From the sequence record OM386655.1: DNA of 64,000 nt; one strand, given 5' to 3'. Below the pieces are notes generated by a model. The model searched no databases, was not told the DNA's origin, and saw only the letters and a program-made list of their open reading frames with translations. Position numbers and translations under genes: made by a program. The stretch comes from Escherichia phage vB_EcoM_ESCO10. This document shows, in pieces, positions 57,544 through 57,999 of this stretch (its first letter is position 1; the number at the start of each line of letters is the position of its first letter).

Positions 57544-57999
57544 TTATTTTAGGTCTTCTGCCCAGTCGAGCTTCAAGGGTTCTTTATATTCTCTGTCTAA
57601 AACAACAGGAATCTGGACATTCCCACTAAAGGTAAGAGGCCCTACGTTATAGGACAGTGTAATATGAGGAGTGTAATCATCAAAATCGTGCGTAGCACCT
57701 AAGGTACGAGCATACTGATGGCGGCATTTAAGATACTCTGAATCGAGAACCAGTACCAAGACAGGAGAATCGCCGTGTTTCCATACTTCAAGATGTCCGG
57801 CCGAAGCAACTTCAAAACTTCCGGATGCAACGGTGTATGGAACGTTGACTCTTGAATAACAGATTGTAGAATGGAATTTTTCACGAGGAACTGGATTAGG
57901 AACCTTTAAAGTGCGCTGAAGATTTTCCAGCGCATCTAAAGTTAATTCAGAGAATTTTGCAGCAACGTATAGACCTTGAGCAAAATCTTCGGTTTTCAT
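57544..57999 (-). CDS. 57B: gp57B, 2H-phosphoesterase (Acb1-type anti-CBASS cyclic-nucleotide phosphodiesterase)
   Basis: 151 aa; two H-x-T/S motifs (HSTICYS, HITLSY); position directly before 57A and gene 1 as in T4. Confidence 0.75.

Follow-up and report, generated by a model that had tools for sequence, protein, structure and literature searches.

Gene 57B of Escherichia phage vB_EcoM_ESCO10 (sequence record OM386655.1) very probably encodes the Acb1 orthologue of a Dhakavirus-type T4-like coliphage, that is, by homology, an anti-CBASS 2H phosphodiesterase. The gene was studied in a stretch of 64,000 nucleotides, referred to here as the window, the whole of which is a VR5-like Dhakavirus segment (94.7% identity over 82% of a 24-kb query). 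The acb1 gene of the window is already known, as an orthologue of T4 acb1 whose product is identical to a deposited protein, and it implies no new biology. Its open reading frame, its family membership, the conservation of its residues, the purifying selection acting on it and its synteny were established directly in this analysis. The features are collected in Table 1.

Table 1. Coordinates of acb1, its motifs, its neighbours and other features of the window.
Feature	Position	Strand	Details
Spackle	4850..5140		PF25676, 144 bits
Dmd	5497..5697		PF17587, 73 bits
Tk.4 homologue with macro domain	41476..41922	minus	PF01661, 29.5 bits against a cut-off of 22
acb2 (Vs.4) orthologue	43556..43819	minus	cyclic-oligonucleotide sponge by homology; 87 aa; E 5.4e-31 to PDB 7UQ2 'Vs.4'
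ip7 internal protein	45025..45321
184-aa ORF adjoining tRNA genes	55335..55889	minus	T5orf172/MUG113 (GIY-YIG-like); PF13455 32.3 bits, PF10544 27 bits
tRNA-Arg(TCT) and tRNA-Met(CAT)	55909..56064	minus	4 bp apart
ip8-like internal virion protein	57241..57477	minus	downstream of acb1; PHROG 8765, E 3.8e-27; 98.6% identity to VR5 ip8, with ip8 itself placed at 57244..57465
Promoter-like sequence in acb1-ip8 spacer, early-type (putative)	57503..57530	minus	TTTACA-16-TACTAT with upstream TG; consensus match
T4-late-type TATAAATA (putative)	57512..57519	minus	overlaps the early-type promoter-like site; motif search
acb1/gene 57B CDS	57544..57999	minus	151 aa plus stop; ATG to TAA; exactly one ORF at these coordinates
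C-terminal lid	57547..57570	minus	residues 144-151 (T4 145-152), including W146 (T4 W147); 7/8 identical to T4
Second 2H motif, HITLSY	57649..57666	minus	from residue 112; read from DNA; H112/T114 = T4 H113/T115
First 2H motif, HSTICYS	57853..57873	minus	from residue 43; read from DNA; H43/T45 = T4 H44/T46
Gene 57A, tail-fibre assembly chaperone	57999..58229	minus	Pfam PF17594 GP57, 91.9 bits
Gene 1, dNMP kinase	58222..58980	minus	Pfam PF21448 DNMK, 300 bits; upstream of acb1, same transcription direction

In a profile search the window protein scored 198 bits against the Pfam model of Acb1 (PF23474; curated cut-off 27; E 7e-59), and its residues 8-149 aligned with positions 1-144 of the 144 profile positions, covering the full profile. 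Its best match among solved structures was likewise Acb1 (PDB 7T26/7T27, E 7.9e-59, residues 9-148 aligned), and it matched PHROG 755 with 223 bits. Comparison with T4 gp57B (NP_049750.1, from NC_000866) gave 84% identity and 91% similarity with no gaps (E 1e-99). A tblastn search with the window acb1 as query matched 1,470 phage records. A search of NCBIfam returned no model matching Acb1, Acb2 or ip8. Single-sequence AlphaFold2 modelling of the window protein reached a pLDDT of 41.8 and a pTM of 0.33, values too low for a fold search; the 66% identity and the E value of 7.9e-59 to 7T26 point strongly, if indirectly, to a compact 2H fold.

Members of the 2H superfamily carry two H-x-T/S motifs and work without a metal, by way of a 2',3'-cyclic phosphate. 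Reading of the DNA confirmed both motifs, HSTICYS and HITLSY, that the initial annotation had reported for this ORF; HST (residue 43) lies in the N-terminal half of the protein and HIT (residue 112) in the C-terminal half, 69 residues further on. The same annotation took the 2H signature as evidence for Acb1. The motifs are indeed present and the identity is supported by homology, but the motifs alone are insufficient: when the window protein was shuffled with its composition preserved, 17.6% of the shuffles contained two or more H-x-T/S motifs, and the motif pair was therefore rejected as standalone evidence for Acb1. Since such pairs are this frequent in shuffles, the identification is carried by homology. 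Among the 57 window ORFs of 100-200 aa, three contain at least two H-x-T/S motifs, and acb1 is the only one with two H-x-T motifs 55-85 residues apart, the spacing taken as typical of a small 2H enzyme.

Crystallized Acb1 of Erwinia phage FBB1 defines a HxT/HxT catalytic tetrad (H44, T46, H113, T115), the base-stacking residues Y12, W74, F107 and W147, the adenine-specific E141 and a lid (145-152) that closes over the ligand in the structure (Hobbs et al., 2022; PMC9117128). The window protein has the same residue at all nine positions, its numbering being shifted by one, so that the catalytic tetrad is H43/T45/H112/T114 and the equivalents of Y12/W74/F107/W147/E141 are Y11/W73/F106/W146/E140. 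The four tetrad residues and Y11 are invariant in a 10-sequence alignment reaching down to 30% identity, which includes the proteins of T4, FBB1, Serratia Muldoon and Acinetobacter, Krischvirus, Vibrio, Pseudotevenvirus, Klebsiella and Salicola phages. The lid reads LDWAEDLK in the window protein and LDWADDLK in T4, D149E being the sole change. None of the 24 substitutions that distinguish the window protein from T4 falls on the nine functional residues. Five of them lie close together in the loop spanning T4 positions 76-81, directly past the stacking W74, and I43F (T4 numbering) adjoins the catalytic H44; the loop cluster and I43F could conceivably have an effect on specificity. The correspondence to T4 57B claimed in the initial annotation holds over the full length of the protein (84% identity), at 9 of 9 functional residues, in the genomic slot that the gene occupies and in the Pfam Acb1 score of 198 bits.

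The role of the T4 protein is well established. Gene 57B of T4 was identified as Acb1 via activity-guided fractionation, and its deletion abolished cGAMP cleavage in the lysate (Hobbs et al., 2022; PMC9117128). The deletion phage grew normally without CBASS and showed a replication defect of more than 300-fold in CBASS-active hosts only. T4 Acb1 was inactivated by H44A/H113A, its activity appeared in T4 infection from about 15 min, and all nine additional diverse Acb1 homologues that were assayed cleaved 3'3'-cGAMP and cAAA (PMC9117128). That immune signals made of cyclic nucleotides are broken down by T4 57B, as the initial annotation had stated, is correct (Hobbs et al., 2022; PMC9117128). 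Independent transposon sequencing has found that 57B/acb1 becomes conditionally essential on a CBASS host.

For the window protein, the substrate range, the chemistry and the anti-CBASS phenotype would be those expected from the work on T4 and FBB1. By homology it would be a small, metal-independent 2H phosphodiesterase, in which a U-shaped pocket would bind CBASS cyclic di- and trinucleotides with at least one adenosine (3'3'-cGAMP, cUA, cAAA, cAAG) and, as in the orthologue, clamp the ligand in a strained conformation. Y11, W73, F106 and W146 would stack on the bases, and E140 would read the adenine N6. Acid-base catalysis by the H43/T45/H112/T114 tetrad would let the 2'-OH attack the 3'-5' linkage, and the resulting 2',3'-cyclic phosphate intermediate would then be hydrolysed to a linear 3'-phosphate product. 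In this way the second messenger would be removed before CBASS effectors fire and the infected cell would be spared abortive death; cA3-dependent type III CRISPR effectors may also be kept off.

That a Dhakavirus Acb1 departs from T4 Acb1 in its substrate range or in having a second function is, in our judgement, very improbable. Such a difference might take one of two forms: the substitutions near W74 and H44 may have shifted the cyclic-nucleotide preference, which could evade Panoptes-type guards, or the protein may have an added activity on 2',3'-cyclic-phosphate RNA ends. A different activity is argued against by the known ligand-contact residues, all of which are as in T4. A search of those supplementary files of Hobbs et al. 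(2022) that were available matched no Dhakavirus protein among the nine extra homologues assayed there.

It is very improbable that the main role of the protein lies in RNA-end metabolism, with a LigT-type 2',3'-cyclic phosphodiesterase or 2'-5' RNA ligase acting for example on cleaved tRNAs and the cleavage of cyclic oligonucleotides being secondary. Such a role would be in keeping with membership of the 2H superfamily and its two H-x-T motifs, with a sub-threshold match to Pfam 2_5_RNA_ligase2 (E 0.061, 13.8 bits), with the label 'RNA ligase' in PHROG 755 and RefSeq, and with the location of acb1 near the phage genes for tRNA-Arg and tRNA-Met. However, those 13.8 bits to the LigT-type family PF13563 lie far below its cut-off of 27 and compare with 198 bits for the Acb1 model. 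No RNA-ligase domain of the ATP-dependent type was among the Pfam matches at E ≤0.1, and the K-x-D-G motif of ATP-dependent ligases is absent from the window protein. The adenine contact (E141), the four stacking aromatics and the lid are all conserved, and deletion of the 84%-identical T4 protein leads to loss of cGAMP cleavage and impairs the phage only where CBASS is active (PMC9117128). The label 'RNA ligase' in PHROG 755 and RefSeq was rejected on these grounds; it reflects distant 2H-superfamily similarity.

The protein of the window could also be inactive, or its substrate range could have shifted from that of T4 Acb1, a reading that we consider very improbable. Guard systems based on decoy nucleotides (Panoptes) punish broad depletion of cyclic nucleotides and could select for such a shift or loss; in Tevenvirinae acb1 is known to be lost naturally, as in Bas43 through a nonsense mutation, and under type II Panoptes escapers of Bas35 have mutations in acb1. 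Of the 24 positions at which the window protein differs from T4, some moreover adjoin W74 and H44. Against this, the reading frame is unbroken, no catalytic or ligand-contact residue differs from T4, and nine of nine diverse homologues cleaved 3'3'-cGAMP and cAAA (PMC9117128). The pattern of nucleotide divergence argues in the same direction: the six differences between acb1 and its VR5 counterpart are all synonymous, and the differing codons between acb1 and T4 comprise 63 synonymous and 24 non-synonymous ones (dN 0.149, with dS saturated, so that the dN/dS of about 0.04 is approximate). The acb1 gene is under strong purifying selection and is maintained rather than decaying. That it is a decayed gene was rejected in view of the intact frame and the synonymous-only divergence from VR5.

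On the minus strand the order of genes is gene 3, gene 1, 57A, acb1 and the ip8-like gene. The order gene 3/gene 1/57A/57B is shared by T4, VR5 and six distant T4-like phages, namely Serratia Muldoon and Acinetobacter, Krischvirus, Vibrio, Pseudotevenvirus and Klebsiella phages. The position before 57A and gene 1 that the initial annotation assigned to the ORF is correct in plus-strand coordinates only, whereas on the coding strand acb1 lies directly downstream of 57A and gene 1. The TAA stop codon of 57A and the ATG of acb1 overlap by one base (TAATG), the sequence of the junction being GAAGAATAATGAAAACC, and a terminator scan of the minus strand found no terminator-like site between gene 1, 57A and acb1. 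Because of the shared gene order, the TAATG overlap and the absence of a terminator-like site, acb1 is likely to share a transcript with genes 1 and 57A and to be translationally coupled to them. Promoter-like matches inside gene 1 were not above shuffles (17 found, compared to 12.7 ± 3.3), and no internal promoter is claimed.

The spacer between acb1 and the ip8-like gene is 66 bp long and contains an early-type promoter-like sequence as well as the T4-late-type TATAAATA, which is one of only six on the minus strand of the window. Both are putative sites recognized by their match to a consensus. A near-identical sequence, TTTACA-17-TACTAT, is located at 57236..57208, ahead of a Trna.4 homologue.

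Downstream of ip8, the window is mosaic between 55300 and 57240. Positions 55300..57000 match phage VR7 at 95.5%, and tblastn found no matches in the window for ip9, Trna.2, VR5_137 and VR5_136 of VR5. The mosaic region includes a 139-aa ORF (56072..56491) with a match to PHROG 25544 and no Pfam match, and the 184-aa T5orf172/MUG113 ORF, a candidate for a mobile or DNA-binding element within this variable tRNA region.

Several further counter-defence genes had been listed for this window in the initial annotation, and profile or homology matches located every one of them: dmd, spackle, the internal proteins and the macro-domain gene. The acb2 (Vs.4) orthologue was missing from that list. With acb1 and acb2, the phage carries the two-part toolkit of T4 against cyclic-nucleotide signals, and since both are carried, it is predicted to resist many CBASS systems. 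Type II Panoptes senses cA3 depletion, and the intact acb1 is predicted to expose the phage to restriction by this system; for type I Panoptes, a case that depends on acb2 is known in T4. The maintenance of acb1 is notable because natural or selected loss of the gene occurs in related phages under Panoptes pressure.

The main use of the identification is in annotation. The RefSeq records of T4 and of related Dhakavirus phages label gene 57B 'RNA ligase', and the identical gene of VR5 was deposited as a 'hypothetical protein'; the label Acb1 can now be assigned with high confidence.

Compared to known systems, the window protein is closest to VR5_143 (AIZ01930.1) of the Dhakavirus Escherichia phage vB_EcoM-VR5, with 100% amino acid and 98.7% nucleotide identity, an entry described merely as 'hypothetical protein, similar to T4 gp57B'. 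The flanking genes 57A, gene 1 and ip8 are the same in both phages. VR5 has in addition ip9 and Trna.2 downstream, which the window does not contain, and it carries the same tRNA-Arg/tRNA-Met pair with a wider spacing.

T4 gp57B/Acb1 and the window protein do not differ in the catalytic tetrad, the stacking residues, the glutamate that contacts adenine or the tryptophan of the lid, and in T4, as in the window, 57B has gene 1 and 57A upstream and a gene for an internal protein downstream. T4 differs in one extra N-terminal Met, the window protein being one residue shorter, and the 24 substitutions form clusters at T4 residues 3-9, 57-59 and 76-81. The downstream neighbour is ipI in T4 and the ip8-like gene in the window, and the stop and start codons of 57A and 57B overlap by 4 bases in T4, in contrast to 1 base in the window.

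The Acb1 of Erwinia phage FBB1 (PDB 7T26, 7T27), which is 66% identical to the window protein over 141 residues, provides the structural template with its 2H fold, HxT/HxT tetrad and C-terminal lid. It comes from a phage of another host genus and is more diverged, with HTT in place of HST in motif 1 and F in place of W73. The LigT/2'-5' RNA ligase branch (PF13563) has in common with the window protein the two H-x-T/S motifs and the metal-independent route through a 2',3'-cyclic phosphate expected from them, whereas the dedicated cyclic-oligonucleotide pocket and the lid belong to Acb1.
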